This document shows, piece by piece, positions 60 to 60,623 of a stretch of 64,000 bases of DNA. Origin of the DNA: Mustelus asterias (Eukaryota); assembly GCF_964213995.1 (NCBI RefSeq), contig NW_027590119.1:1364001-1428000 (forward strand). Direction: 5' to 3'. Both the position numbers and the translations under genes were made by a program. Numbering within the stretch: the first letter of the stretch is position 1; every line of letters begins with the position of its first letter. The notes under the pieces were generated by a model that did no database searches, had not been told where the DNA came from, and saw only the letters and a list, made by a program, of their open reading frames with translations.

Positions 60-470
60 ACAAACATGGCGGCCGCACGCTGCATATTGCCCCCAATAAA
101 GATGGCGAACGTTAACCCGGGACGAACATGAGGAGCTGCCGCCCTTCTCGGTACAAACTGGGTCCGGGAAGTTCTCTTCCGCGGTTTACGGCTGACACAA
201 CATGCTTCCGCAGCGTTTCCACCCACCTGGACGATCCATTGCTCTCTCCGTACCTCCAATCACCTCAAACAAAGTTCCGAGCCCAAAACAAAAGCCGTTT
301 CCCATCGCCATTACTCACACTGCGCATGCTCCAGTCAAAGCTGGCCCCGCCCCTCGTTCGCTCCCATTGCTTGGAGGACCGACCGCTCCAGGTAGGTCCT
401 CCAGCACTGTCCCCTCTTCCCATTGGTCCGCGCTGCCGTCAATCAGCCGGGCATTGTGACGGTGATTTGC
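60..470 (-). promoter_or_regulatory. CpG-rich ZNF promoter cassette P1 (probably serves a gene left of the window)
   Basis: YY1-type AACATGGCGGC and AAGATGGCG, NRF1-like TGCGCATGCT, GC box CCCCGCCCC, ATTGG (CCAAT), dyad TGGAGGACC-N14-GGTCCTCCA at 372-403. Homologous to the arm upstream of the ZNF at 47754. Confidence 0.7.
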
Positions 471-5373: not shown

Positions 5374-6433
5374 TCAGACCTGGATATGATTAACAGCATC
5401 AATAAGTGTAGAATCCAAACCTTGCAGTCCCTTGTGAACTCGCCGGTGTGTTAGCAGGTGGGATGACTGAATAAATCCCTTTCCACAGACATTACAGGTG
5501 AACGGCCTCTCCCCACTGTGAACTCGCTGGTGGTTCAGAAGATAAGATAAATGAGAAAATCCCTTCCCACAGACAGAGCAGGTAAATGGCCTCTCCCCAC
5601 TGTGAACTCTCTGATGTGTCAGCAGGTTGGATGACTGACTGAATCCCTTCCCACACATGGAGCAGGTGAACGGCCTCTCCCCAGTGTGAACTCGCTGGTG
5701 GTTCAATAGGTTGGATGAAAGAGTGAATCCCTTCCCACACACGGAGAAAGTGAATGGCCTCTCCTCACTGTGAACCTGCTGGTGTGTCAGAAGGTTGGAT
5801 GAATTAATGAATCCCTTCCCACAGTCTGAGCAGGTGAAGGCCTCTCCCCAGTGTGAATTCTCTGGCGGTTCAGTAGGGCAGATGGACGGCTGAATCCCTT
5901 CCCACACACACAGCAGGTGAATGGCCTCTCCCCAGTGTGAGTATATTGGTGCGTCAGCAGATCCTTTTTGTTTTTAAAGCTCTTCGCAGTCGGAACAATT
6001 AAAAAGTTTGTTGTCAGAGTGAACAAGTTGATGTGTCTGCAGGTGGGATGACTGAATGAATCCTTTCCCACACACAGAGCAGGTGAATGGTCTCTCCCGT
6101 GTGAATACGTTGGTGTGTCAGCAGATCTTTTTTGCATTTAAAACTCTTCCCACAGTCAGAACATGTAAACATTCTCTCATCAGTGTGAACAAGTTGGTGT
6201 GTCACAATGTGGGATGAGCGAGTGAATCCCTTCCCACACACAGGGCAGGTGAACGGCCTCTCCCCAGTGTGAACCCGTTGGTGAGTCAGAAGGTTGTATG
6301 AATGGGTGAATCCCTTCCCACAAACGGAGGAGGTGAATGGTCTCTCCCCAGTGTGACTGCACCAATGAACTTCCAGTTGTGATGGGAAACTGAATCCCTT
6401 CCCGCACTCCACACATTTCCACGGTTTCTCCAT
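5374..6433 (-). pseudogene. C2H2 ZNF pseudogene, 12 fingers, paralog of 39017-39997
   Basis: Starts MEKPWKC; three frameshifts (~6095, ~5985, ~5840) and two Cys losses (TSSVC, TFSVC). Confidence 0.9.
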
Positions 6434-7059
6434 GGTGCTGGTGCCCTTGTGTTTCTCCAGGTTGGATGATCAGTTGAAACCTCGTCCACACACACAACAT
6501 ACATGTAGTTTCACCCTGCTGTGAACTGTGTGATGTTTCTTCAGGCTGTGGACTGGTTAAAGCACTTTCCACAGTCAGTTCACTGGAACACTCTCAATCG
6601 GGTGTGTGTTTGTTTCAATGCTTTTCCGGTCACACTGATGTTTAAAATCTTTGCCGACAGACAGAAGAGTCAAACATTTCTCCTCCCACATTCAAAGACC
6701 AATGATCTTCAGCTCTGAATGAACAAAGTGACTTTGCCAGTCATGATGTTCGTTTGAGTTTTCGGTCTACCAATCCTCCACTTCCAATATCCTGTAAAAA
6801 AAAATTTGGAAAAGTCATCACTGTCAGTCCAGAATAGAAATCCTGAACAGACAATTCTAGTTTCTCCGTAACATTTTTTCCTCTCTTGTTCCCCAAAATC
6901 TGTAAATCCCCGTCCCACACACTCTCCCTTCTCCCTGGGCTTAAACCCATCTCACCATCTGCATCATTTCTTTCCTCCACTCCCAGTTTTCTCCCTCCCT
7001 CTCCTCTGTCTGGGTTCAGTTCTCCAGCTCCTGTCTGCAGACTGACAATAAAACCAATG

Positions 7060-7750
7060 GGTCTTATTGGGGGTGTTGGGGCCTCCAGCGGGTGTTTGTG
7101 AATCCTCCCCGCCCACCTCCCAGGGTTTCCTTCCTTCCCAGAGATCAGAATCCTCATTGATTTGAGGCCAAAGTGTAACCTCTTATTTATTGTCCCCCTC
7201 CCCCATCCTCTGATGTGAACCATCCTCCAGTGGCTGAGCCAGGATGGGGCCGTTAACCTGGGCCTGTTCCCGGGAGGGAGGGAGGGAGAAGCCCCGCAGC
7301 TGCAAACCAGGGAGCTGACAATGATTCTGAAGGGTTTGCGGATCCACAAAGTGTTTCCAAATCCTCCCAGCCACCGCCTAACGCTGACTCCGCTTCTCCG
7401 GGACAAACAAGCGCCAAGGACAGCAATGACACTGCGCATGCTCCACATCACAATGCCCGGGGACTGATTGACGGCAGCTCCGGACCAATAGGACGAGGGG
7501 GCGGGGCTGGAGGACCGAGCGGGAGCGGCTGGTCCTCCAACCAATCGGAGTGAATGAGGGGCGGGACCTGAAGCATGCGCAGTGCGGGTAATGGCGACGG
7601 ACAGACGGACGGTTTTAATTTGGAAGCGAGATCAATACGAGGTAGAGGGCGGCGTGCGGGGAATGATAAAGTGGCGGGTGGGTGGAGAGGCTTTGTAAAC
7701 ATGATGTTCAAACCCAAACCCCGGAAATGAACTTCCTGGTCCCCCCCTTT
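7060..7750. promoter_or_regulatory. Bidirectional ZNF promoter cassette P2 plus conserved leader
   Basis: NRF1-like sites at both ends (TGCGCATGCT, GCATGCGCA), two CCAAT boxes, two GC boxes, dyad 7508-7539, ETS-like CCGGAAAT/ACTTCCTG at ~7720-7740. Lies between divergently oriented ZNF loci. Confidence 0.75.
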
Positions 7751-7801
7751 GTACCAAATGGAGCGGCAGCTTGTCGTGTTAGACCCGGGCTGACTGCTGC
7801 C

Positions 7802-8050
7802 TGTGGTAAACCACTGTTAAGCTTATTGCCTGTGTGTGTGTGACATGTCTGGGCATGCCCCTGCCAGCCCTGCATGAGACTCCTCCCCCCCCCCCCTGTC
7901 CAGGTATGAAGGTGACTGCTCCCCACCCTCCTGCCTCAGTTGCTGGACCAGTTCATCAGCATGGGTGTGTGCTCCAAGTCTTTTGCGAATAAAAGCCTAT
8001 TTGTTCTTGCAAACAAACTAGTCTTTACTTGATTGATAGATAGTGCATCA
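7802..8050 (+). mobile_element. Solo LTR
   Basis: TG...CA termini, TATA-like GGTATGAAGG, AATAAA near the 3' end; 5-bp TSD (CCGCC perfect in copy B, CTGCC/CCGCC here). Confidence 0.75.
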
Positions 8051-8100
8051 CCGCCATTGAGGCTGCATGTGGGAGGCCGGCAGGGATTGTGATCGGGGAG

Positions 8101-8350
8101 TGATGTCACAATGGAATGTGTGAGGGTGTGACGTCACAATGGAATGTGTGAGGGTGTGACGTCACAATGGAATGTGTGAGGGTGTGACGTCACAATGGAA
8201 TGTGTGAGGGTGTGACGTCACAATGGAATGGGTGAGAGTGTGACGCCACAATGGAATGGGTCGGAGTGTGATGTCACAATGGAATGGGTGAGGGTGTGAC
8301 GTCACAATGGAATGGGTCGGAGTGTGAGGTCACAATGGAATGGGTGAGGG
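8101..8350. repeat. 28-bp minisatellite, 9 copies (TGACGTCACAATGGAATG(T/G)GTGAGGGTG)
   Basis: Units start at 8101, 8129 ... 8325. Confidence 0.95.
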
Positions 8351-8371
8351 TTCCAAATTCGCCTGACTTCG

Positions 8372-11849: not shown

Positions 11850-12325
11850 GCTAAATGGAATGAGAGAGAGAGAGTGTATGTGTGAGGGGCGTGGGTGGAG
11901 ATTTAAAGAATGTTCCATAGAAACTACAATTGTCTGTTTTGAATTTCTATCATGTGCTGACAGTGATGATTTTTGTAAACTCCTTTCAGTGGATATTGGA
12001 AGGAGAGGTTTTGACTGGAAAAGCACTGAGATTCTCACACCCGTATCAGAGTGTTCCAGTGCACTGATTGTGGAGAGACACAAGGACTCCGACACCATGG
12101 AGAAACCATGGAAATGTGGAGACTGTGGGAAGGGATTCAGAGCCCCATCTGAGGTGGAATCTCATCGACGCAGTCACACCGGGGAGAGACCGTTCATATG
12201 CTCCACTTGTGGGAAGGGATTCAATCATTCATCGAATCTGCTGAGACACCAGTGAATTCACACTGAGGAGGGGCTAGTCACCTGCTCACAGTGTGGGAAG
12301 GGAGTCAGAGATTCATCCACCCTGC
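11850..12325 (+). pseudogene. Truncated C2H2 ZNF (about 3 fingers)
   Basis: [16 protein letters not shown]..., stop at 12253 in finger 2; ends in a G-rich repeat. Confidence 0.85.
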
Positions 12326-13149: not shown

Positions 13150-13905
13150 CCTGTAATCACTTGTTGGTGTCTCTGCAGGTTGGATGACCGATTGAATCCC
13201 TTCCCACACACAGAGCAGGTGAACGGTCTCTCCCCGGTGTGAACTCGTTGGTGTCTCCACCGTGTGGATGACCTCCTAAACCTCTTTGTGCAGTGAGAGC
13301 AGCTAAACGGTCTCACGTCAGTGTGAATGGGTTGGTGGTTCATCAGTTCCTGAGGGCTTTTGAAGCCACTCCCACAGTCAGAGCATTTAAAGGGTCTGTC
13401 TTGGGTGTGAGTGACCTTGTGGCTCAACAGGTTGGGCAACTGAGTGAATCCCTTCCCACACACAGAGCAGATGTACGGTCTCTCTCTGGCATGAACCCGT
13501 TGGTGTGTCAACAGATTGTTAACCGAGTGAACTCTTTCCCACAGTCAGAGCAGGTGAATGGCCTCTCCCCGGTGTGAACTCGCTGGTGTACCCGCAGGCT
13601 GGATGACCTTCTAAACCTGTTTGTGCTGTGAGAGCAGCTGAACGGTCTCTCCTCACTGTGAATGCGCTGGTGGGACACCAGTTCCCCAGAGCTTTTGAAG
13701 CTACTCCCACAGTCAGAGCATTTAAAGGGTCTCTCCTGGATGTGAGTGAGATTGTGTTTCAGCAGGTTGGATAACTGACTGAATCCCTTCCCACAGACAC
13801 AGCAGGTGAATGTCTCTCTCCAGTGTGACTGCGCCGATGAGTTTCCAGTGCAGATGGGAACCTGAATCCTTTCCCACAGTCCCCACATTTACACAATTTC
13901 TCCAT
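13150..13905 (-). pseudogene. C2H2 ZNF pseudogene, 9 fingers
   Basis: [10 protein letters not shown] start at 13905; frameshifts at ~13812 and ~13510; one Cys lost (SCSHS). Confidence 0.88.
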
Positions 13906-16944: not shown

Positions 16945-17330
16945 CAAACATGGCGGCCGCACGTGCGCACTGCTGCATATTGCCCCCAATAAAGATGGCG
17001 AACGTTAACCCGGGACGAACACGAGGAGCTGCAGCCCTGCTCGGTACAAACTGGGTCCGGGAAGTTCTCTTCCGCGGTTTGCGGCTTACACAACATGCTT
17101 CCGCAGCGTTTCCACCCACCTGGACGATCCATTGCTCTCTCCGTACCGCCAATCACCGCTAACAGATTTCCGAGCCCAAAACAAAAGCCGTTTCCCATCG
17201 CCATTACTCACACTGCGCATGCTCCAGTCAAAGCTGGCCCCGCCCCTCGTTCGTTCCCATTGGCACTGTCCCCTCTTCCCATTGGTCCGTGCTGCCGTCA
17301 ATCAGCCGGGCATTGTGACGGTGATTTGCT
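16945..17330 (-). promoter_or_regulatory. ZNF promoter cassette P3 (candidate promoter of ZNF 13150-13905); dyad deleted
   Basis: Paralog of 60-470 with the same motifs, minus ~35 bp that included the dyad. A consensus donor AG|GTGAGT lies on minus at 16289/16288. Confidence 0.65.
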
Positions 17331-17401: not shown

Positions 17402-19177
17402 ATGAATGACCAGGGTGAGGTTAGGGCCGGTCAAGGACAGTGGTGGGAACTTGTGTATGGAATCAGTAGAGATAGGCGAGGTGATGAATGAATACTTTTC
17501 TTCAGTGTTCACCAAGGAGAGGGGCCATGTTTTTCAGGAAGAGAAGGTGTTACAGGCTAATAGGCTGGAGGAAATAGATGTTCGGAGGGAGGATGTATTG
17601 GCAGTTTTGAATAAACTGAAGGTCGATAAGTCCCCTGGGCCTGATGAAATGTATCCTAGGATTCTTTGGGAGGCGAGGGATGAGATTGCAGAGCCTTTGG
17701 CTTTGATCTTTGGGTCCTCGCTGTCCACGGGGATGGTGCCAGAGGACTGGAGAGTGGCAAATGTTGTTCCTCTGTTTAAGAAAGGGAATAGAAATGACCC
17801 TGGTAATTATAGACCGGTTAGTCTGACTTCGGTGGTTGGTAAATTGATGGAAAAGGTCCTTAGGGATGGGATTTACGACCATTTAGAAAGATGCGGATTA
17901 ATCCGGGATAGTCAGCACGGATTTGTGAAGGGCAAATCGTGCCTCACAAATTTGATAGAATTTTTTGAGGAGGTAACTAGGTGTGTTGATGAAGGTAGGG
18001 CGGTTGATGTCATATACATGGATTTTAGTAAGGCGTTTGATAAGGTCCCCCATGGTCGGCTTATGATGAAAGTAAGGAGGTGTGGGATAGAGGGAAAGTT
18101 GGCCGATTGGATAGGTAACTGGCTGTCTGATCGAAGACAGAGGGTGGTGGTGGATGGAAAATTTTCGGACTGGAGGCAGGTTGCTAGCGGAGTGCCGCAG
18201 GGATCGGTGCTTGGTCCTCTGCTCTTTGTGATTTTTATTAATGACTTAGAGGAGGGGGCTGAAGGGTGGATCAGTAAATTTGCTGATGACACCAAGATTG
18301 GTGGAGTAGTGGATGAGGTGGAGGGGTGTTGTAGGCTGCAAAGAGACATAGATAGGATGCAAAGCTGGGCTGAAAAATGGCAAATGGAGTTTAACCCTGA
18401 TAAATGTGAGGTGATTCATTTTGGTGGGACTAATTTAAATGTGGATTACAGGGTCAAAGGTAGGGTTCTGAAGACTGTGGAGGAACAGAGAGATCTTGGG
18501 GTCCATATCCACAGATCTCTAAAGGTTGCCAGTCAAGTGGATAGAGCTGTGAAGAAGGCATATAGTGTGTTAGCTTTTATTAACAGGGGGTTGGAGTTTA
18601 AGAGCCGTGGGGTTATGCTGCAACTGTACAGGACCTTGGTGAGACCGCATTTGGAATATTGCGTGCAGTTCTGGTCACCTCACTATAAGAAGGATGTGGA
18701 AGCGCTGGAAAGAGTGCAGAGGAGATTTACCAGGATGCTGCCTGGTTTGGAGTGTCGGTCTTATGAGGAAAGGTTGAGGGAGCTGGGGCTGTTCTCTCTG
18801 GAGCGGAGGAGATTGAGGGGAGACTTAATAGAGGTTTATAAAATGATGAAGGGGATAGATCGAGTGAACGTTCAAAGACTATTTCCTCGGGTGGATGGAG
18901 CTATTACGAGGGGGCATAACTATAGGGTTCATGGTGGGAGATATAGGAAGGATATCAGAGGTAGGTTCTTCACGCAGAGAGTGGTTGGGGTGTGGAATGG
19001 ACTGCCTGCAGTGATAGTGGAGTCAGACACTTTAGGAACATTTAAGCGGTTATTGGATAGGCACATGGAGCACACCAGGATGGTAGGGAGTGGGATAGCT
19101 TGATCTTGGTTTCAGATGAAGGTCGGCACAACATCGTGGGCCGAAGGGCCTGTTCTGTGCTGTACTGTTCTATGTTC
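17402..19177 (+). mobile_element. Young 5'-truncated CR1 LINE with an uninterrupted RT ORF
   Basis: 565-aa open frame 17406-19103 ([42 protein letters not shown]); tail tgttctatgttc; absent from copy A. Confidence 0.95.
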
Positions 19178-20262
19178 AAACGTCACACAAGCTTTCGGAG
19201 CCTCAAGCTCCTTCTTCAGGTGAGTGGGAATTCTGTTCACAAACAGGGCATATAAAGACATAGACTCAATTTACAGAATAATGGTTGGAATGTGAATCCT
19301 TGCAGCTAATCAAGTCTTAAAGGTACAAACAATGTGAGTGGAGAGCTTCCACTCTAAACACGTTAAAGAAGCCATCCCCTACGGACACGCCCTCCGTATA
19401 CACAGGATCTGCTTGGGTGAGGAGGATCGCAACAGACACCTCCAGATGCTGAAAGATGCCCTCATAAGAACAGGATATAGCGCTCAACTCATCGATCGAC
19501 AGTTCCGACGCGCCACAGCGAAAAACCGCACCGACCTCCTCAGAAGACAAACACGGGACAAGGTGGACAGAGTACCCTTCGTCGTCCAGTACTTCATCGG
19601 AGCGGAGAAGCTACGGCATCTCCTCTGGAGCCTTCAACATGTCATTGATGAAGATGAACATCTCGCCAAGGCCATCCCCACACCCCCACTTCTTGCCTTC
19701 AAACAACCGCACAACCTCAAACAGACCATTGTCCGCAGCAAACTACCCAGCCTTCAGGAGAACAGTGACCACGACACCACACAACCCTGCCACAGCAACC
19801 TCTGCAACACGTGCCGGATCATCGACACGGATGCCATCATCTCACGTGAGAACACCATCCACCAGGTACACGGTACATACTCTTGCAACTCGGCCAAAGT
19901 TGTCTACCTGATACGCTGCAGGAAAGGATGTCCCGAGGCATGGTACATTGGGGAAACCATGCAGACGCTGTGACAACGGATGAATGAATACCACTCGACA
20001 ATCACCAGGCAAGACTGTTCTCTTCCTGTTGGGGAGCACTTGAGCGGTCACGGGCATTCGGCCTCTGATATTCGGGTAAGCGTTCTCCAAGGCGGCCTTC
20101 ACGCCACACGACGGCGCAGAGTCGCTGAGCAGAAACTGATAGCCAAGTTCTGCACACATGAGGACGGCCTCAACCGGGATATTGGGTTCATGTCACACTA
20201 TCTGTAATCCCCACAACTTGCCTGGACTTGCAGAGTCTCACTGGCTGTCCTGTCTGGACAGT

Positions 20263-20616
20263 GGGGCGGCGCGGTAGCACAGTGGTTAGCACTGCTGCTT
20301 TACAGCTCCAGGGACCTGGGTTCGATTCCCGGCTTGGGTCACTGTCTGTGTGGAGTTTGCACGTTCTCCTCGTGTCTGCGTGAGTTTCCTCCGGGTGCTC
20401 CGGTTTCCTCCCACAGTCCAAAGATGTGCGGGTTAGGTTGATTGGCCATGCTAAAATTCCCCTTCGTGTCCTGAGATGCGTAGGTTAGAGGGATTAGTGG
20501 GTAAATATGTAGGGATATGGGGGTAGGGCCTGGGTGGGATTGTGGTCGGTGCCGACTCGATGGGCCGAATGGCCTTTTTCTGTGCTGTAGGGTTTCTATG
20601 ATTCTATGAGTCTATG
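20263..20616 (+). mobile_element. HE1-like tRNA-derived V-SINE with a CR1-type tail
   Basis: A box GGTAGCACAGTGG, B box GGTTCGATTCC, V-domain GGGTTTCCTCCGGGTGCTCCGGTTTCCTCCCACAGTCCAAAGA, (ttctatga)n tail; absent from copy A. Confidence 0.9.
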
Positions 20617-22598
20617 AATATACATCTCTTTAGCCTGTCTTGATGCTGTCTCCACTCACATTGTTTGTACCTTTAAGACTTGATTAGCTGTAAGTATTTG
20701 CATTCCAACCATTATTCTGTTAATTGAGTTTGTGTCTTTATATGCCCTGTTTGTGAACAGAATTCCCACTCACCTGAAGAAGGAGCTTAAGACTCTGAAA
20801 GCTTGTGGCTTTTGCTACCAAATAAACCTGTTGGACTTTAACCTGGTGTTGTTAAACTTCTTACTGTGTTTACCCCAGTCCAACGCCGGCATCTCCACAT
20901 TAGTAATAACAATGACAGAGTCTCAGTGTAACAATGACACACACAGGCTCCAATACAATCAGAGTGGAGATGGGGCACAGAGACAACACAGCAAAGCACT
21001 GACTTACTCTGAGTGTAACAATGACACACACAGGCTCCAATACAATCAGAGTGGGGATGGAGCATAGAGACAACACAGCAAAGCACTGACTTGCTCTGAG
21101 TGTAACAAATACAATGTTTGTTAAAATATTTAGAGTCACGTTGCAGTATGTTAGTGAACACAGCATTAGATCCAATGTAATGGTAACACAATCAGTATCT
21201 CGTGCACCATAACCAAAGTTTAGGTTTCATTTGATAGTGTGAGTGAGTCGTGGTCTATTAGTATGATGTATTTAAATTCCGATGTGTGTTACTCTGCCAC
21301 TGTCAGTATCAGACAATAACCTGTCTGTTATTCCAATTCTGCTGTATTTTACAACTGCAGTTTCAGTGTCTCTGAGGTCATTTTAACTGCAGATAATCTG
21401 ACATTAAGGGAGACAAGAGGCCCAACAAACATTTGATTATAATAGGAGGACAAAGTGCAAGGGAACAATGATATTTTAAGGTGTCTGTGTTATGGTGAGT
21501 GTCACTGGGAGGTGAGTGATAAAATACAAGTGGAAACATCATGACAGAGACATGCGACTGACTCGGCCTGACTGAGAGCTGTTATACTCGAGGCGAGAAT
21601 AATGAGGACATGGGGAACTCCTGAGATTTCTGATATCTGAGGTGTATCTGTTAGAGGAACTGAAAATAATCAGTTCCTCCTCATGGTCATCTCCAGTTCT
21701 CAAGTTACACAGACACACAGGAAAGAGATCTGACAGCTCATCAAACCCAATATTTTAATCTTCTGTTTGAGACACATTATAATCGAAAAGATCAAATATT
21801 AAAACCTGAGGAGAGATACATTCAGAATGTCACAAGGATGAGTGAACTGTCTAATTAATCCCATTCACCATAACTTTGCCAATTTATCCTCTGCAAGTAT
21901 TTATCCAATTCCCTTTGAAAGCTACTATCAAACTTGCTTCTAGCACCTGTCAGTTTGTGCATTCCAGATCATATCAAGTTATTGTGTAACAAATTCTCCT
22001 TATCACCCCCTCCAGTTCTGTTGTCAATTATATTAAATCTCTGTATCCTCTGCTTACAGACCCTCCTGCACCGAGGAAATCGATTCTCTCCATCGACAGA
22101 CCCTCCTGCTCCTGGGAGATAATTTCTCTCCATTGACACTATCATAAATTATTTGTCATTTTAAACTCCTCTATTAAATCTCCCCATTACATTCCCTAAT
22201 CTAAGGTGGATAACCCATGTTTCTCCTGCCCTGAAGAATTATATGGACTCAAAATGTTAACTCTGAACAGATGCCGCCGGACCTGCCGGGTTTTTCTGCT
22301 TTTCTCCCTGTCATTCCTTCTATAATCAATCAGAAACTCTTCATGATTTTGAACATCTTGATCAAATAGGAACACACAGAGCGTGAGAGAGGTACAGAGG
22401 GAGAGACAGAAAGACTAAGAGAAAAATTGAGAAAGATTTTAAAAAGCAGAAAGATGAGGTGGTCAAAGATAAAAGCTGAGAAACAGAGGAAACAAGCAAT
22501 ACAGAGAGAATGATCTAGAATATAAGGGAGCAGGCTATCAGTTCCCAGCTATGGGGAGCAGAGTCGGCATCTCCACGGTAGAGCAGAGGGGACTCAGT

Positions 22599-24828: not shown

Positions 24829-25978
24829 TCAGACCTGGATATGATTAACAGCATCGATAAGTGTAGAATCCAAACCTTGCAGTCCCTTGTGAACTCGCCG
24901 GTGTGTTAGCAGGTGGGATGACTGAATAAATCCCTTTCCACAGACATTACAGGTGAACGGCCTCTCCCCAGTGTGAACTCGCTGGTGTTTCAGAAGATAA
25001 GATAAATGAGAAAATCCCTTCCCACAAACAGAGCAGGTAAATGGCCTCTCCTCACTGTGAACTCTCTGGTGTGTCAGCAGGTTGGATGACTGACTGAATC
25101 CCTTCCCACACGTGGAGCAGGTGAACGGCCTCTCCCCAGTGTGAACTCGCTGGTGTGTCAGGAGATTGTATGAACGGGTGAATCCCTTCCCACACACGGA
25201 GCAAGTGAATGGCCTCTCCTCACTGTGAACCTGCTGGTGTGTCAGGAGATTGTATGAACGGGTGAATCCCTTCCCACATTCAGAGCAGGTGAATAGTCGA
25301 TCCCCTGTGTGGAGCTGCTGGTGTATCAGAAGGTTGGATGAATTAATGAATCCCTTCCCACAGTCTGAGCAGGTGAAGGGCCTCTCCCCAGTGTGAATTC
25401 TCTGGTGGTTCAGTAGGGCAGATGGGCGGCTGAATCCCTTCCCACACACACACAGCAGGTGAATGGCCTCTCCCCAGTGTGAGCATATTGGTGCGTCAGC
25501 AGATCTTTTTTACTTTTAAAGCTCTTCTCACAGTGGGAACAATTAAAAAGTTTGTTATCAGAGCGAACAAGTTGATGTGTCTGCAAGTGGGATGACTGAA
25601 TGAATTCTTTCCCACACACAGAGAGGTGAACGGTCTCTCCCCAGTGTGAATACGTTGGTGTGTCAGCAGATCCTTTTTGCATTTAAAACTCTTCTCACAG
25701 TCAGAACATGTAAACAGTTTCTCATCAGTGTGAACAAGTTGGTGTGTCACAATGTGGGATAAGCGAGTGAATCCCTTCCCACACACAGGGCAGGTGAACG
25801 GCCTCTCCCCAGTGTGAACCCATTGGTGAATCAGAAGATTGTATGAATGGGTGAATCCCTTCCCACAAACAGAGCAGGTGAACGGTCTCTCCCCAGTGTG
25901 ACTGCGCCGATGAACTTCCAATTGTGATGGGAAACCGAATCCCTTCCCACAATCCACACATTCCCACGGTTTCTCCAT
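24829..25978 (-). pseudogene. C2H2 ZNF, 13 fingers, frameshifted paralog of 39017-39997
   Basis: 1-nt deletion at ~25623 and 2-nt (TG) insertion at ~25445; net +1, so not compensating. Confidence 0.85.
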
Positions 25979-37769: not shown

Positions 37770-38390
37770 CACCCACCCGCCACATTTATCATTCCCCGCG
37801 CGCCGCCCTCTACCTTGTATTGTTCTCGCTTCCAAGTTGAAACCGTCCGTCCGCCGCCGCCATTACCCGCACTGCGCATGCTTCAGGTCCCGCCCCTCAT
37901 TCACTCCGATTGGTTGGAGGACCAGCCGCTCCCGCTCGGTCCTCCAGTCCCGCCCCCTCTTCCTATTGGTCCGGAGCTGCCGTCAATCAGTCCCCGGGCA
38001 TTGTGATGTGGAGCATGCGCAGTGTCATTGCTGGCCTTGGCGCTTGTTTGTCCCGGAGAAGCGGAGTCAGCGTTAGGCGGTGGCTGGGAGGATTTGGAAA
38101 CACTTTGTGGATCCGCAAACCCTTCAGAATCATTGTCAGCTCCCTGGTTTGCAGCTGCGGGGCTTCTCCCTCCCTCCCTCCCGGGAACAGGCCCAGGTTA
38201 ACGGCCCCATCCTGGCTCAGCCACTGGAGGATGGTTCACATCAGAGGATGGGGGAGGGGGACAATAAATAAGAGGTTACACTTTGGCCTCAAATCAATGA
38301 GGACTCTGATCTCTGGGAAGGAAGGAAACCCTGGGAGGTGGGCGGGAAGGATTCACAAACACTCGCTGGAGGCCCCAACATCCCCAATAA
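37770..38390 (+). promoter_or_regulatory. ZNF promoter cassette P5 plus leader
   Basis: Dyad at 37915-37946; NRF1/CCAAT/GC motifs; possible weak donor CAG|GTTAAC at 38197 and acceptor ttttacag at 38658. Confidence 0.75.
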
Positions 38391-39016
38391 GACCCATTGG
38401 TTTTATTGTCAGTCTGCAGACAGGAGCTGGAGAACTGAACCCAGACAGAGGAGAGGGAGGGAGAAAACTGGGAGTGGAGGAAAGAAATGGTGAGATGGGT
38501 TTGGATTTCAGCCCAGGGAGGAGGGAGAGTGTGTGGGACGGAGATTTACAGATTTGGGGGAACAAGAGAGGAAAAAATGTTCCAGACGAACTAGAATTGT
38601 CTGTTCAGAGTTTCTATCGTGTTCTGACAGTGATGACTTTTCTAAACTGTTTTTACAGGATATTGGAAGTGAAAGATTGGCAGACAGAAAATTCAAACCG
38701 GACATCACATCTGACAAAGTCATTCAGTTCCTTCGGAGCTGAATATCATTGGTCTTTGAATATAGAAAGAGAAATATTTGTCTGTTCTGCCTGTGGGCAA
38801 AGAAATTAAACATCAGTGTGACCGGAAAAGCATCGAGACAAACACACACCCGAGTGAGAGTGTTCCAGTGAACTGAATGTGGAAAGAGCTTTAACCAGTT
38901 ACACAGCCTGAAAAAACATCACAGTTCACAGCAGGGTGAAACTACGTGTATGTTGTGTGTGTGGATGAGGCTTGAACTGATCATCCAACCTGGAGAAACA
39001 CAAGGACACCCGCACC

Positions 39017-39997
39017 ATGGAGAAACCGTGGAAATGTGTGGATTGTGGGAAGGGATTCGGTTTCCCATCACAACTGGAAGTTCATCGGCGCAGTCACACT
39101 GGGGAGAGACCGTTCACCTGCTCCGTCTGTGGGAAGGGATTCACCCATTCATACAACCTTCTGACTCACCAACGGGTTCACACTGGGGAGAGGCCGTTCA
39201 CCTGCCCTGTGTGTGGGAAGGGATTCACTCGCTCATCCCACATTGTGACACACCAACTTGTTCACACTGATGAGAGAATGTTTATATGTTCTGACTGTGA
39301 GAAGAGTTTTAAATGCAAAAAGGATCTGCTGACACACCAACGAATTCACACTGGGGAGAGACCGTTCACCTGCTCTGTGTGTGGGAAAGGATTCATTCAG
39401 TCATCCCACTTGCAGACACATCAACTTGTTCACTCTGATAACAAACTTTTTAATTGTTCCCACTGTGAGAAGAGCTTTAAAAATAAAAAGGATCTGCTAA
39501 CGCACCAATATGCTCACACTGGGGAGAGGCCATTCACCTGCTGTGTGTGTGGGAAGGGATTCAGCCGTCCATCTGCCCTATTGAACCACCAGAGAATTCA
39601 CACTGGGGAGAGGCCCTTCACCTGCTCAGACTGTGGGAAGGGATTCACTCGTTCATCCAACTTATTGAATCACCAGCGAGTTCACACTGGGGAGAGGCCG
39701 TTCACCTGCTCTGTGTGTGGGAAGGGATTCAGTCAGTCATCCAACCTGCTGACACACCAGAAAGTTCACAGTGCGGAGAGGCCATTTACCTGCTCTGTCT
39801 GTGGGAAGGGATTTTCTCATTTATCTTATCTTCTGAAACACCAGCGAGTTCACACTGGGGAGAGGCCGTTCACCTGTAATGTCTGTGGAAAGGGATTTAT
39901 TCAGTCATCCCACCTGCTAACACACCAGCGAGTTCACAAACGACTGCAAGGTTTGGATTCTACTCTTAATGATGCTGTTAATCATATCCAGGACTGA
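39017..39997 (+). CDS. Intact C2H2 zinc-finger protein, 11 fingers plus a 19-aa tail, 326 aa
   Basis: ACCATGG start, 11 complete fingers, no frameshift, upstream promoter cassette. Confidence 0.92.
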
Positions 39998-43483: not shown

Positions 43484-44294
43484 ATTTAATAGTAAATTTC
43501 AAAGAGAATTGGATAAATACTTGCAGAGGGAATTTGGCAGAACGATGGTAAATGGGATTAATTGACAGTTCACTCGTCTTTGTGACATTCTGAATGTTTC
43601 TCTCCTGAGGTTTTAACATTTGATCTTTTCAGTCACAATGTGTCTCAAACAGAAGATCAAAATATTGGGTTTGATGAGCTGTCAGATCTGTTTCCCATGT
43701 GACTGTAACTCAAGAATTGCAGATAACCATGAGAAGGAACTGATTATTTTCAGTTCCTCTCACAGGTACACCTCAATATCAGAAATCTCTGGAGTTCCCC
43801 ATGTCCTCATTATTCTCCCCTTGAGCATAACAGCTCTCAGTCAAGTAGAGTCAGTAACACATGTCTCTGCCATAATGTTTGCATTCCTATTTTCCCACTC
43901 ACCTCCCAGTGACACTCAGCATAACACACAAACCTCAAACTATCATTGCCCCCTTACATCTTGTCCTCCTCTTACAAGCAAATATTTGTTGGGCCTCTTG
44001 TCTCCCTTAATGTCAGGTTACCTGCAGGCAAAATGACCTCAGCGACACTGGAACCGATCTTTGTGATTATCATTGTTACACCAGATTCCAATCAGCCCCA
44101 GGACCTGCAGTTGTAAAATGCAGTAACATTTTAATATCAGGCAGGTTATTGTCAAATAGTAAGTGGCAGAGTGACAAATAACAGAATTGGAATATATTAT
44201 ATCAATAGACCATGACTCACTCGCTATCAAATGAGACCCAAACTTTGGTTATGGTGCACGAGATATTGACTGTATTATCATTACATTGGATCCC

Positions 44295-46399: not shown

Positions 46400-46770
46400 T
46401 TCACTGCGGGAGCTGCTGCGCATGCGCACTGTCAGGCTGTGATTGGAGCATGCGCGGTGCGGGTGCTGCAGCTTGATGGAAGCGCGAGGCGGTCGTGTGG
46501 CTTTCGCAACGGGTGAAATAAAACACCCAGTGTGGGTGGGGAACGGAGCCGGTGGGTGGAGAGATTTCATTACCACCGGACTCGGCTCGCAAAGTTCGAG
46601 TAAAAATCTAACGGTCCCCAATTTGGACCGAGACGGTTGTTCTCTCGGTGTCGGGCCGGGCTCGCCGGCCGCCATCTTTATAAGGGGCAATGTTCCGGCA
46701 AGGGCACTGCCATCTTTATAAGGGGCAATGTTCCGGCAAGGGCGCTGCCATCTTTATAGGGGGCAATACC
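46400..46770 (+). promoter_or_regulatory. ZNF promoter arm P6 with a triplicated YY1-type site
   Basis: Perfect NRF1 TGCGCATGCGCA, ATTGG, and three 38-bp units starting GCCATCTT at 46671, 46709, 46747. Confidence 0.7.
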
Positions 46771-47753: not shown

Positions 47754-48424
47754 ATGGAGAAACTGTGGAAATGTGGGGACTGTGGGAAGAGCTTCAATTA
47801 CCCAAAGCTGAGAAAACGTTATCATTGTCACACTGGGGAGACACCATTCACCTGCTCTGTATGTGGGAAGCGATTCACTCAGTCATCCCATCTCACTGAC
47901 CATCAACTTGTACACAGTGATCAGAGACCTTTTAAATGCTCTGATTGTGAGAAGAGGTTTAAAAGCAAGAAGCACCTGGTAGCACATCAGCTTGTTCACA
48001 CTGGGGAGAGGCCGTTCCTCTGCTCTGTGTGTGGGAAGAGATTCAATCGGTCATCCCACCTTCTGACACATCAGCAAGTTCACACTGGGGAGAGACCATT
48101 CCTCTGCTCTGTGTGTGGTAAGGATTCATTCAGTCATCCCAACTTCTGAGACATCAGCGAGTTCACACTGGGGAGAGGCCATTTACCTGCTGTGAGTGTG
48201 GGAAGGGATTCAGTCAGTTGTCCGACCTTCTGGTACACCAACGAGTTCACACTGGGAAGAGGCCTTTCACCTGTTCTGTATGTCGGAACAGCTTTGCTCA
48301 GTCATCTACTCTTCAGAGACACCAACGAGTTCATACTGGAGAGAGGCCATTCACCTGCTCTGAGTGTGAGAAGGGATTCATTCAGTTATCCGACCTTCTG
48401 AGACACCAGCGAGTTCACAAATGA
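47754..48424 (+). pseudogene. C2H2 ZNF, ~8 fingers, first finger damaged and one frameshift
   Basis: MEKLWKCGDC; 1-nt deletion at ~48122. Confidence 0.8.
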
Positions 48425-49499: not shown

Positions 49500-50390
49500 G
49501 AATGAGGGGGCGGGGCTGGAGGACCGAGCGAGAGCGGCTGGTCCTCCAACCAATCGGAGTGAATGAGGGGCGGGGCTGAGGGCGAGTTGCACTGTGGGGA
49601 TCTGGAGCATGCGCAGTGCCGATCACTGAGGATTGAGGCGGTTGAGGAAATATTCAGTCCGGGCGATAACACCGGGTAAATCAGGAATGAGTGATGGAGC
49701 CGGTGGGTGGGCGGACTTGGAGGCTTCATAAAAGTCCCGTGTAGGCCGCAAGCCCCCAATAGGAAGCTCGAATTCGATATTTGAACCGTTGAAAGGTTGT
49801 TCGGGCTTTTCCCCCGATTCAGGCCCGGGTGAACGACCGCCATCTTGACAGTGTGCGGCCGAGCGCGCGCGCAGACAGAGGGAGCTCCATGCTCAGCCCC
49901 CTCCGCCCCGATTCAGTCTGATTGGTTGGAGGACCAGCCGCTTGTGCTCGGTCCTCCAGCCCCGCCCCCTCCTCCTATTGGTCCGGAGCTGCCGTCAATC
50001 AGCTCCCGGGCATTGTGATGTGGAGCATGCGCAGTGTCATTGCTGTCCTTGTCCCGGAGAAGCGGAGTCAGCGTTAGGCGGTGGCTGGGAGGATTTGGAA
50101 ACACTTTGTGGATCCGCAAACCCTTCAGAATCATTGTCAGCTCCCTGGTTTGCAGCTGCGGGGCTTCTCCCTCCCTCCCTCCCGGGAACAGGCCCAGGTT
50201 AACGGCCCCATCCTGGCTCAGCCACTGGAGGATGGTTCACATCAGAGGATGGGGGAGGGGGACAATAAATAAGAGGTTACACTTTGGCCTCAAATCAATG
50301 AGGACTCTGATCTCTGGGAAGGAAGGAAACCCTGGGAGGTGGGCGGGGAGGATTCACAAACACCCGCTGGAGGCCCCAACACCCCCAGTA
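49500..50390. promoter_or_regulatory. Two promoter cores in opposite orientation (P7, P8) plus leader
   Basis: Dyads at 49517-49548 and 49927-49958; NRF1, CCAAT, GC and YY1 (CGCCATCTT) motifs; leader 50050-50390 near-identical to 38050-38390. Confidence 0.75.
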
Positions 50391-51274
50391 AAAAGCTGCA
50401 GCTCCCGGGTTTGCAGCTTTTTCCCGGGAGAGAGTTGGGGAAGTTTTGTGGAGACAATTCCCGGCTGGTTCAGTTAGTGGTCAATGAAGCTCAGAAATCC
50501 TGAGTCAGGATCCTCATTGGGTGGTTGTTTTATTAAAATATTATTATTCATCTGTTGAAGAAAATATTAATTTGTTTTGAAGAATCATTTTTATAGCGTT
50601 TGTGAAAATGTCCATTAAAATAGCCATTTTTCCAATGTATTTCTGATGAGAATTTTAATATTACTGATTTGGGAATTGATTCTCGGGAATGGTCATTCTG
50701 AAAATGATTATGTTTTAATTTACTCCATAATGCCAGAAGTCAGTTTGTATTTCAAATGTAATTTAGAATATCTGGGAGCAAATGTTAAAATGAGGTTTGA
50801 GACACCAGCTGCCATTACTTCCTGTGACTGATGATACCTTTGTGCCTGTGCAGGAGGTAATTCCCCTGGTGCTGTGGCACAAATAAAATGGAGCCTTTCC
50901 TCGGAACAGGTCCGTGTTAACGGTCACCGTGTTGTTTCAGTGGTGAGCAGGGGACGTGTGGCCATTGTGGTAACAACAGAGTCGGTGGGACTTCATGTCC
51001 CCTGACCTTAAAAGAAAATAATTGACTCCTTGGTTGTACAGTCAATCTGCACATGGTCTGGAGAACTGAATCCAGCCAGAGTGACAAGGCAGAGGGAGCT
51101 GGTCTCAGAGTGGAGACATGAAATGGTGGAGATGGGGCAAGGAGTTTGATTTAGACCAGGGACAAGAGAGAGTGTGTGGGATGGAGATTATAGCTCAAGA
51201 TAAATGAGATGAAGAAGTGTTCCATGGAAACTCGAATTGTCTGTTATGAATTCGTTTTTTAAGCTCTTTTTGCA

Positions 51275-52515
<1,241 letters not shown>

Positions 52516-52639
52516 TATTCTGACAATATTGGTTTGTTTCTGCTGACATTAACAATCCCTACAACTGGAATTCTGCTTTAATATTTAGTTTAATATTTCA
52601 CAATCCACAGAATAGATATATTCAAACAAGAATGAACAA

Positions 52640-53528
52640 TGTTGTGGGTTTAATCTCAGTTGTTTGGATTTAATCTCAGTTGTTTGGATTTAATCTCAGT
52701 TGTTTGGGTTTAAACCCAGTTGTTGTGGGTTTAATCTCAGTTGTTTGGATTTAATCTCAGTTGTTTGGGTTTACTCTCCGTTATTTGGGTTTAATCTCAG
52801 TGGTTTGGGTTTAATATCAGTTGTTTGGATTTAATCTCAGTTGTTGTGGGTTTAATCTCAGTTGTTTGGATTTACTCTCCGTTATTTGGGTTTAATCTCA
52901 GTGGTTTGGGTTTAATATCAGTTGTTTGGATTTAATCTCAGTTGTTTGGATTTAATCTCAGTTGTTTGGATTTAATCTCAGTTGTTTGGGTTTAATCTCA
53001 GTTGTTTGGGTTTAATCTCAGTTGTTTGGGTTTAATCTCAGTTGTTTGGGTTTAATCTCAGTTGTTTGGGTTTAATCTCAGTTGTTTGGGTTTAATCTCA
53101 GTTGTTTGGATTTAATATCAGTTGTTTGGGTTTAATCTCAGTTGTTTGGGTTTAATCTCAGTTGTTTGGGTTTAATCTCAGTTGTTTGGGTTTAATCTCA
53201 GTTGTTTGGGTTTAATATCAGTTGTTTGGGTTTAATATCAGTTGTTTGGGTTTAATATCAGTTGTTTGGATTTAATCTCAGTTGTTTGGGTTTAATATCA
53301 GTTGTTTGGGTTTAATATCAGTTGTTCTGGGTTTAATCTCAGTTGTTTGGGTTTAATATCAGTTGTTTAGGTTTAATCTCAGTTGTTTTGGGTTTAATCT
53401 CAGTTGTTTGGGTTTAATATCAGTTGTTCTGGGTTTAATCTCAGTTGTTCTGGGTTTAATATCAGTTGTTTGGGTTTAATCTCAGTTGTTTGGGTTTAAT
53501 CTCAGTTGTTTGGGTTTAATATCAGTTG
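52640..53528. repeat. 20-bp satellite, ~44 copies (GTTGTTTGGGTTTAATCTCA)
   Basis: Direct inspection. Confidence 0.97.
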
Positions 53529-53869
53529 TTAATATCAGGGATTTGTTCCCAGGAGCAGGCTGAGGGTAAGAGAGTGGGTTTTCTGACTTTAATTAATTAT
53601 TTATTTTTTCAGTTAATTTTGGGTTTAAAATCGGAGGTTTTTTTCAAAACCGGAAGTCGGGCCAGGAGAGGCCTGGGGAAGTTTTTGGAGGGTTTAAAAG
53701 CGCACCAAAGTATACAGCGGGCAGCATCGTAGCGGGCAGCAGAGTGAGTGGGAAGTTGAGTGAGCTGTCAGGGCTTTGGCTCACAGGGCTTGGACGAGCA
53801 GGGGTGAGTTTTTGTTTCCTTACACTCTTATTAACTTTTCACTGTCTTACTTGACATAAAGTGTCCAGT

Positions 53870-58600: not shown

Positions 58601-58719
58601 ATTGTATTTTTGGTTTTGAGAGTGTGGGCTGCTGAAAAGGAAATCACGACCCATTATGAACAAATCAAGGAATATGCTGTTTTATTCTGTCAGCCATTTA
58701 CTGGGCGAGCCGGCACTGT

Positions 58720-60623
58720 AATGTTCACCATTTTATATTCAAATCTGGGGGGGATAATGTTCACTGTTTTATATTCGGGTCTGGGGGGGATAATGTTCAC
58801 TGTTTTATATTCGGGTCTGGGGGATAATGTTCACTGTTTTATATTCGGGTCTGGGGGGGATAATGTTCACTGTTTTCTATTCGGGTCTGGGGGATAATGT
58901 TCACTGTTTTATATTCGGGTCTGGGGGATAATGTTCACTGTTTTATATTCGGGTCTGGGAGATAATGTTCATTGGTTTAAATTTGGGTCTGGGGGGGATA
59001 ATGTTCACTGTTTTATATTCGGGTCTGGGGGATAATGTTCACTGTTTCATATTCGGGTCTGGGGGTGATAATGTTCACTGTTTTATATTTGAGTCTGGGG
59101 GGGATAATGTTCACTGTTTTATATTCGGGTCTGGGGGAGAATGTTCACTGTTTTATATTTGGGTCTGGGGGATAATGTTCACTTTTATATTCGGGTCTGG
59201 GGGTGATAATGTTCACTGTTTCATATTTGGGTCTGGGGGTGATAATGTTCACTGTTTCATATTCGGGTCTGGGGGGGATAATGTTCACTGTTTTATATTC
59301 GGGTCTGGGGGGGATAATGTTCACTGTTTTATATTCGGGTCTGGGGGGGATAATGTTCACTGTTTTATATTCGGGTCTGGGGGATAATGTTCACTGTTTT
59401 ATATTCGGGTCTGGGGGATAATGTTCACTGTTTTATATTCGGGTCTGGGGGGGATAATGTTCACTGTTTCATATTCGGGTCTGGGGGTGATAATGTTCAC
59501 TGTTTTATATTTGGGTCTGGGGGATAATGTTCACTGTTTTATATTCGGGTCTGGGGGGGATAATGTTCACTGTTTTATATTCGGGTCTGGGGGGGATAAT
59601 GTTCACTGTTTTATATTCGGGTCTGGGGGTGATAATGTTCACTGTTTTATATTCGGGTCTGGGGGATAATGTTCACTGTTTTATATTCGGATCTGGGGGA
59701 TAATGTTCACTGTTTTATATTCGGGTCTGGGGGGGATAATGTTCACTGTTTTATATTCGGGTCTGGGGGATAATGTTCACTGTTTTATATTCGGGTCTGG
59801 GGGATAATGTTCACTGTTTTATATTTGGGTCTGGGAGATAATGTTCACTGTTTTATATTCGGGTCTGGGGAGGATAATGTTCACTGTTTTATATTCGGGT
59901 CTGGGGGATAATGTTCACTGTTTTATATTCGGGTCTGGGGGGGATAATGTTCACTGTTTTATATTCGGGTCTGGGGAGGATAATGTTCACTGTTTTATTT
60001 TCGGGTCTGGGAGATAATGTTCACTGTTTTATATTGGGGTCTGGGGGGGATAATGTTCACTGTTTTATATTCAGGTCTGGGGGATAATGTTCACTGTTTT
60101 ATATTCGGGTCTGGGGGATAATGTTCACTGTTTTATATTCGGGTCTGGGGGGGATAATGTTCACTGTTTTATATTCGGGTCTGGGGGATAATGTTCACTG
60201 TTCTTTATTTGGGTCTGGGGGGGATAATGTTCACTGTTTTATATTCGGTCTGGGGGATAATGTTCACTGTTTTATATTCGGGTCTGGGGGAGTTAATGTT
60301 CACTGTTTTATATTCGGGTCTGGGGGATAATGTTCACTGTTTTATATTCGGGTCTGGGGGGGATAATGTTCACTGTTTTATATTCGGGTCTGGGGGGGAT
60401 AATGTTCACTGTTTTATATTTGGGTCTGGGGGGGATAATGTTCACTGTTTTATATTCGGGTCTGGGGGGATAATGTTCACTGTTTTATATTCGGGTCTGG
60501 GAGATAATGTTCACTGTTTTATATTCGGGTCTGGGGGGGATAATGTTCACTGTTTTATATTCGGGTCTGGGGGGGATAATGTTCACTGTTTTATATTCGG
60601 GTCTGGGAGATAATGTTCACTGT
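58720..60623. repeat. 32-34-bp satellite, ~57 copies (GATAATGTTCACTGTTTTATATTCGGGTCTG5-7)
   Basis: Direct inspection; unit length varies with the G run. Confidence 0.97.

Follow-up and report, generated by a model that had tools for sequence, protein, structure and literature searches.

A recurrent but not invariant dyad in apparently inverted-duplicated promoters of a Mustelus asterias zinc-finger gene cluster

The zinc-finger cluster and its promoter cassettes

The stretch analysed here (the window, 64,000 nucleotides of Mustelus asterias) is a C2H2 zinc-finger (ZNF) gene cluster, with 11 finger arrays spread over both strands and broken up by retroelements, reverse transcriptase being recognised by Pfam in 3 open reading frames (ORFs). 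In kind, the ZNF starts and the retroelements would fit a shark or ray. Only two long ZNF frames are intact, one of 16 fingers at 33777-35123 (+) and one of 11 fingers at 39017-39997 (+), both with Pfam zf-C2H2 matches. The arrays at 5434-6415, 13239-13887, 24889-25960, 47853-48418 and 51643-52371 are broken over several frames and are either pseudogenes or assembly errors. Elsewhere, a further inverted repeat of 9-10 bp with a 6-nt spacer (2567-2592, 21654-21679 and 43735-43758) is shared by three paralogous regions downstream of ZNFs, of which one is only about 80% alike, and two long tandem arrays lie at 52637-53530 and 58719-60623, with units of about 60 and 35 bp.

A promoter cassette recurs through this cluster. 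Its reference core (37855-38022, +) comprises, in order, an NRF1-type site, a GC box, a reverse CCAAT box, a dyad of two 9-bp arms, a second GC box, a second reverse CCAAT box, a DECA-like decamer and another NRF1-type site, and outward of the core lie YY1- and ETS-type sites; the names NRF1-, NF-Y- and YY1-type denote matches to consensus patterns, and the ETS-like sites are read from the alignment. In 6 cassettes the decamer lies close to the second CCAAT box, at a gap of 10 nt in 4 copies, the reference core among them, and 9 nt in 2. By profile search the window contains 8 cassette cores, which we name by the position of the dyad: six carry a perfect dyad, one (36768) a degenerate dyad and one (17260) none.

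The perfect dyads, with their 14-nt spacers, lie at 372-403 (+; lineage B), 7508-7539 (-; lineage A, a complete two-way cassette), 27051-27082 (-; lineage A), 37915-37946 (+; lineage A), 49517-49548 (-; within a 71-bp module of lineage A) and 49927-49958 (+; lineage A, its spacer carrying three changes). Divergent ZNF arrays are found on both sides of copy 7508 (5434-6415, -, and a remnant at 12115-12177, +) and of copy 27051 (24889-25960, -, and a remnant at 31858-31920, +), the rightward ones being one-finger remnants about 4.6 kb off. Copy 37915 lies upstream of the intact 11-finger gene and likely drives it.

Several other features adjoin the cassettes. Frames of 295-322 codons, carrying short in-frame indels, are open across three lineage-A cassettes (6744-7631, -; 26290-27174, -; 37841-38806, +); they are not treated as genes because they match no Pfam family, and their first 110 residues gave no protein homolog. 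Tandem arrays of a 28-bp unit with CRE-type palindromes (8093-8351 and 27875-28105) lie outward of the left flanks in cassettes 7508 and 27051, at a distance of about 260-500 bp, and are possibly an amplified promoter element; their core, TCACAATG, is found again in the conserved block of the cassette and at 36453. A tRNA-Val(GAC)-like gene or pseudogene (36882-36956, +) stands some 85 bp away from the degenerate dyad, occupying the side on which other cassettes carry a half-promoter, and the tRNA, at 36883, is the single match in an Rfam scan of the window, which returned none for the dyad. The segments 487-1871 and 19186-20867 are presumably a Penelope-like element with inverted terminal copies; it is inserted immediately to the right of the lineage-B cassette, at the place of the missing second NRF1-type site. 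An apparent splice donor near 577 was set aside as exon evidence, since it lies in the repeat that we take to be the Penelope end. The 17260 copy contains a LINE whose reverse transcriptase frame (17406-19103) is open.

Copies of the dyad and constraint on its arms

All six exact dyads of the preliminary description are present with the coordinates and spacers it gave, dinucleotide shuffles produced 0 matches in 100, and every one of the 13 exact 9-mer half-sites in the window falls within a dyad. Perfect inverted repeats of at least 9 bp with a spacer of 3-20 nt number 2-6 per shuffled 64-kb window (8 shuffles) and arise in 26 of 3000 shuffles of one cassette. The sixfold repetition of the dyad is duplication, not six origins. 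Prokaryotic genomes hold at least 120 dyad loci; among the matches listed (120) none resembles the cassette beyond the dyad region, the spacer is 14 nt in 4, and lengths of 10, 13, 16 and 19 nt are commonest, and we treated these matches as chance and not as relatives of the cassette.

The preliminary description did not recognise the arms as a standard motif, and a search of the main text of papers found no description of the arm motif, the dyad or the cassette promoter, the matches to the 9-mer that were examined being oligonucleotides only. The parts of the cassette are of known kinds and, as far as we have seen, the literature holds no description of their arrangement or of the 9-mer.

Independence of the copies is lower than it first appeared. 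A 71-bp module around the dyad is identical at 69-71 of 71 positions among copies 7508, 27051, 37915 and 49517, to which the module of 49927 is identical at 62-63 of 72 and that of 372 at 58-59 of 71. Because five of the six exact copies share one recently copied module, they represent two lineages, with only 372 separate, where about four independent copies had been counted. Copy 49517 combines a module 70/71 identical to lineage A with a left flank only 58-59% identical to it; a lineage-A module on so diverged a flank is therefore a recent transfer and not independent evidence. The transferred module ends in or near GC boxes, and in the segment 49500-50020 two dyad modules stand back to back round one diverged left flank. 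In copy 49927 the left half is cut off near 49901, and the left-flank homology of 37915 ends near 37769.

Nor are the 18 arm bases and the 14-nt spacing constant, as had been stated, since a homologous seventh copy was missed. This lineage-C dyad (36768-36796, -) keeps 17 of the 18 arm bases about an 11-nt spacer, in a cassette (nhmmer E 7e-11, with the copy itself part of the model) whose CCAAT boxes are both decayed and which is without the second GC box. The reported loss of the dyad near 17260 does hold: in this cassette (17196-17320, +), a sister of copy 372 with a 93% identical left flank, a clean loss of 34 nt, equivalent to 370-403 of copy 372, leaves a junction at 17262/17263. The setting described for the dyad, between CCAAT and GC boxes and flanked by NRF1 sites, stands in part, with NRF1-type sites on both sides in only 3 of the six copies and with the first CCAAT and second GC box mutated and the right NRF1-type site absent in copy 372.

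Homologs outside the window were sought in protein sets with chance reading frames over the dyad, three of the six frames being searched. One forward and one reverse chance ORF gave no matches; a second forward frame gave 2 protein matches and then 1 weaker match (E 0.046) that aligns to the window at E 1e-14. These three homologs (P0001-P0003) align along the promoter, and are read through peptides that fix only some bases and show only in-frame changes. P0001 has a compatible left arm and the lineage-A spacer peptide, followed by a 15-nt deletion reaching into the right arm. P0002, related to copy 36768, has an 11-nt spacer, at least 2 uncompensated changes in the left arm and a compatible right arm, and reads as retaining both CCAAT boxes, while P0003 is missing 33 nt with the right arm and second GC box. 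Read in this way, no outside homolog (0/3) has an intact dyad and all three have single-arm damage. Some of the copies with a broken dyad may be dead promoters. Across the homologous cassettes of the window and outside, the dyad is perfect in 6 of 11 and broken or lost in 5; it is neither invariant nor essential.

The proposal that the arms are constrained cis-elements, and the comparison of arm and spacer rates suggested as its check, fared better. Between copies 7508 and 372 the arms are identical at 18/18 positions, the spacer at 9/14 and the flanks at 103/127; the arms change less, as do the neighbouring factor sites. By Fisher test, p is 0.010 for arms versus spacer, 0.021 for arms versus every non-arm position and 0.003 when a longer flank is counted. 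The dyad is the only 18/18 placement among 128 at 14-nt spacing; at any spacing of 3-40 nt there are 103 in 4579. By hand tally, substitutions in arms and spacer number 0 and 9 over the six exact copies, and 3 and 15 with lineage C added (p about 7e-4), where the lineage A-C spacer count varies with the alignment (4-7; 5 taken). These estimates span two or three lineages, and copy 36768 was itself found by arm search. Contrary to constraint, at least 3 arm changes against about 1 in the spacer have occurred within lineage C, and the core holds 8 comparable identity runs, of which the arms are just 2. From these comparisons we read the constraint on the arms as moderate, not strict, and the arms as probably kept as two separate candidate protein-binding sites.

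Inverted homology of the two flanks

The left flank of copy 7508 (7571-7829, -) carries ETS-like and GGTGGG blocks and ends at an NRF1-type site, and that of copy 372 (52-331, +) carries two YY1-type sites. In reverse orientation, a left-flank profile also matches the right flanks of all 4 lineage-A copies in which such a flank exists (nhmmer E 2.6e-6 to 7.6e-5), among them those of 7508 (7243-7443, +; E 9.4e-6) and 37915 (38011-38211, -; E 2.6e-6). The inverted match scores 21.3 bits, where the highest of 500 base shuffles reaches 3.5; leaving out the NRF1 site lowers the two values to 16.4 and 0.1 bits. In pairwise comparisons beyond the NRF1 sites, two left flanks are clear, with 0 of 500 shuffles (7508) and 0 of 300 as good, and the flank of 372 is marginal (9/300). 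The flank at 46446, belonging to a paralogous half-promoter (46446-46765, -) that has three YY1-type sites, a GGTGGG block and NRF1-type sites and no CCAAT-dyad core, gave no pairwise inverted homology (155 of 300 shuffles as good).

Each flank extends over about 250 nt, and the halves are now about 60% alike, so that, judged by alignment, the promoter reads as a decayed palindrome of about 600 bp with two half-promoters head to head. Because the flanks are inverted homologs, they point to an old head-to-head duplication of the promoter, and the centre of symmetry must fall between the NRF1-type sites. The centre of the dyad lies 52.5 and 86.5 nt from these two sites, 17 nt from their midpoint. 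The longer distance exceeds the shorter by 34 nt, roughly the length of the second GC-CCAAT unit, which directly repeats the first. As the inner segments between arm and NRF1-type site on the two sides give no convincing alignment, that the dyad is the centre of symmetry is something we infer rather than observe. The homology of the 49927 cassette ends at a second inverted match to the left-flank profile (50336-50415, E 7.7e-7) together with an 11-bp inverted repeat (50390-50422); weaker matches occur at the corresponding place in other lineage-A copies, and a further internal duplication is suggested.

Possible origin and function of the dyad

The reading we prefer, tentatively, is that the dyad may be the fold-back centre of the inverted duplication, each arm being an upstream element of one half-promoter that is bound singly and kept under moderate selection. 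An ancestral ZNF gene with its promoter appears, from the flank homology, to have been duplicated head to head, producing a two-way promoter; the dyad, to judge from its position and rarity, would be the innermost remnant of that event and the spacer its unduplicated loop, much as fold-back duplications are described in PMC3907307 as leaving a spacer between short inverted sequences. A later direct repeat of the GC-CCAAT unit may have moved the dyad off the exact midpoint. The module then travelled with the ZNF genes in segmental duplications and, at least once, in a short transfer. Each arm would act beside the CCAAT and GC boxes as a single-factor site, adding to activation by NF-Y, Sp, TALE and NRF1; selection on it would be moderate, no fixed spacing would be needed, and loss would be tolerated. 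In single-stranded DNA the arms may also pair transiently, favouring deletions like that at 17262. Such a single-site fold-back would account for the free spacer, its two lengths, the single-arm losses and the lack of covariation, and the symmetry of the dyad would need no dimer because the whole promoter appears to be a decayed inverted duplication. The arms are broken one at a time, without mirror change. Against an assignment of arms to halves, arm loss is not consistently paired with loss of the matching half-promoter: P0001 reads as having an altered left NRF1 site, yet it is the right arm that is cut.

Known systems resemble the cassette in parts. According to passages of PMC3082894, GABPA, NRF1, NF-Y and YY1 are enriched in human bidirectional promoters, and the vertebrate set includes ZNF143. 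The cassette is like such promoters in its head-to-head genes and its NRF1-, CCAAT-, YY1- and ETS-type sites, but differs in that the cassettes match neither of two ZNF143-type patterns and in that its halves are paralogous inverted copies with a 9-bp dyad at the centre. It shares with the fold-back inverted duplications of PMC3907307 the inverted copies and, if the dyad is the centre, the short unduplicated spacer with short inverted borders; unlike these, it is gene-scale, ancient and fixed, its outer arms are about 60% alike, and its junction is deduced. The decamer by the second CCAAT box recalls the DECA-CCAAT composite of PBX/PREP, NF-Y and Sp2, a likeness that concerns the dyad's neighbour and not the dyad; passages of bioRxiv 10.64898/2026.02.16.706105 give a canonical PBX/PREP-NF-Y distance of 11, a 10-bp case in the Sp2 promoter and predicted clashes at 9, whereas the cassette gap is 10 or 9 nt, although the paper's counting rule may differ. 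Zebrafish FZNFs (PMC10547256) are similar in that the joint expansion of tandem ZNF families goes with a shared promoter design; their classes are TATA or TATA-less, the relevant passages of that paper contain no dyad and its text does not contain 'shark'. The part of PMC8455134 that we draw on serves as context for ZNF families only.

That the dyad has the same fold-back origin and its arms no function, their constancy coming from recent duplication, gene conversion and local template switching, is an unlikely but serious alternative. Five of the six exact copies are one recent module, one of them transferred; the dyad is broken or lost in 5 of the 11 homologous cassettes; the sister cassette with its closely similar left flank has lost it whole; and short template switches make hairpin patterns without selection, as described in PMC5453318. 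This alternative sits poorly, however, with arms that are 18/18 identical where the extended promoter is 72% identical and the neighbouring CCAAT and GC boxes have changed, and homogenisation of the arms would hold their symmetry while permitting drift, but none of the 7 copies has a mirrored change. We give lower probability still to the dimeric or paired regulator of the preliminary description, perhaps a cluster ZNF, that would need both arms at fixed spacing and coordinate the cluster, although two lineages combine perfect symmetry and 14-nt spacing with a spacer of variable sequence, and although spacers of 11 and 14 nt place the arm centres, by arithmetic, 20 and 23 bp apart, both about two helical turns. 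An obligate site at a fixed 14 nt is not supported, since 36768 and P0002, of the third lineage, have 11 nt, and half-sites are not lost together, one arm being broken in all three outside homologs, of which P0002 reads as keeping its CCAAT boxes; the paralogous promoter at 46446, moreover, has no core. The accompanying suggestion of autoregulation gained nothing from a rough recognition code, a weak test that was null for all 6 local finger arrays (223-500 of 500 shuffled targets as good).

A functional RNA hairpin or DNA cruciform, also proposed earlier, is very improbable. In its favour, 7 strands from perfect copies have good folds (z -2.4 to -4.5), the sole arm change in the window still permits pairing, as G-U, on the cassette strand, and the 17262 deletion takes out little more than the stem; that deletion would fit transient pairing as the DNA replicates and does not speak for function. 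Yet two-sided changes occur in none of the 9 arm pairs (covariation term +0.47; pairs that never vary are uninformative), spacer shuffles fold equally well in 15-43% of cases with no significant selection on the inner stem, the left-arm changes of P0002 (at least 2) are uncompensated, and the dyad, between NRF1-type sites, is probably upstream of both start sites. Least credible of all is that the arms are the termini of a MITE or other small mobile element, an alternative named in the preliminary description, with 17260 as the empty site. The symmetry is like that of terminal repeats and the filled and empty pair is clean, but 5 of the 6 copies have no target-site duplication and one has a 2-nt match, every window copy occupies the same homologous cassette context with no unrelated flanks, and the element would be only 32 bp long. 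Because the filled state is common to lineages A, B and C, the empty state at 17260 is derived.

A bolder extension of the fold-back reading, which we regard as improbable, is that the arm might be the site of a new factor licensing a whole lineage-specific ZNF family, probably of cartilaginous fish. The dyad would then be a preserved scar of the fold-back by which the family gained its two-way promoter at a stroke, and a formerly single site would have become symmetric and be read cooperatively in expressed members. If true, this would give a sequence handle on the joint switch-on of a non-KRAB ZNF family, as well as a dated example of inverted duplication giving rise to a bidirectional promoter.

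By itself the dyad opens no new mechanism, and its history illustrates how duplication and short transfers inflate the apparent invariance of motifs in gene clusters. Should the preferred fold-back reading with singly bound arms hold, the cassette would be a small, clear case of a two-way promoter formed by inverted duplication, its centre still legible, and would point to one promoter element of a ZNF family for which we found no description.
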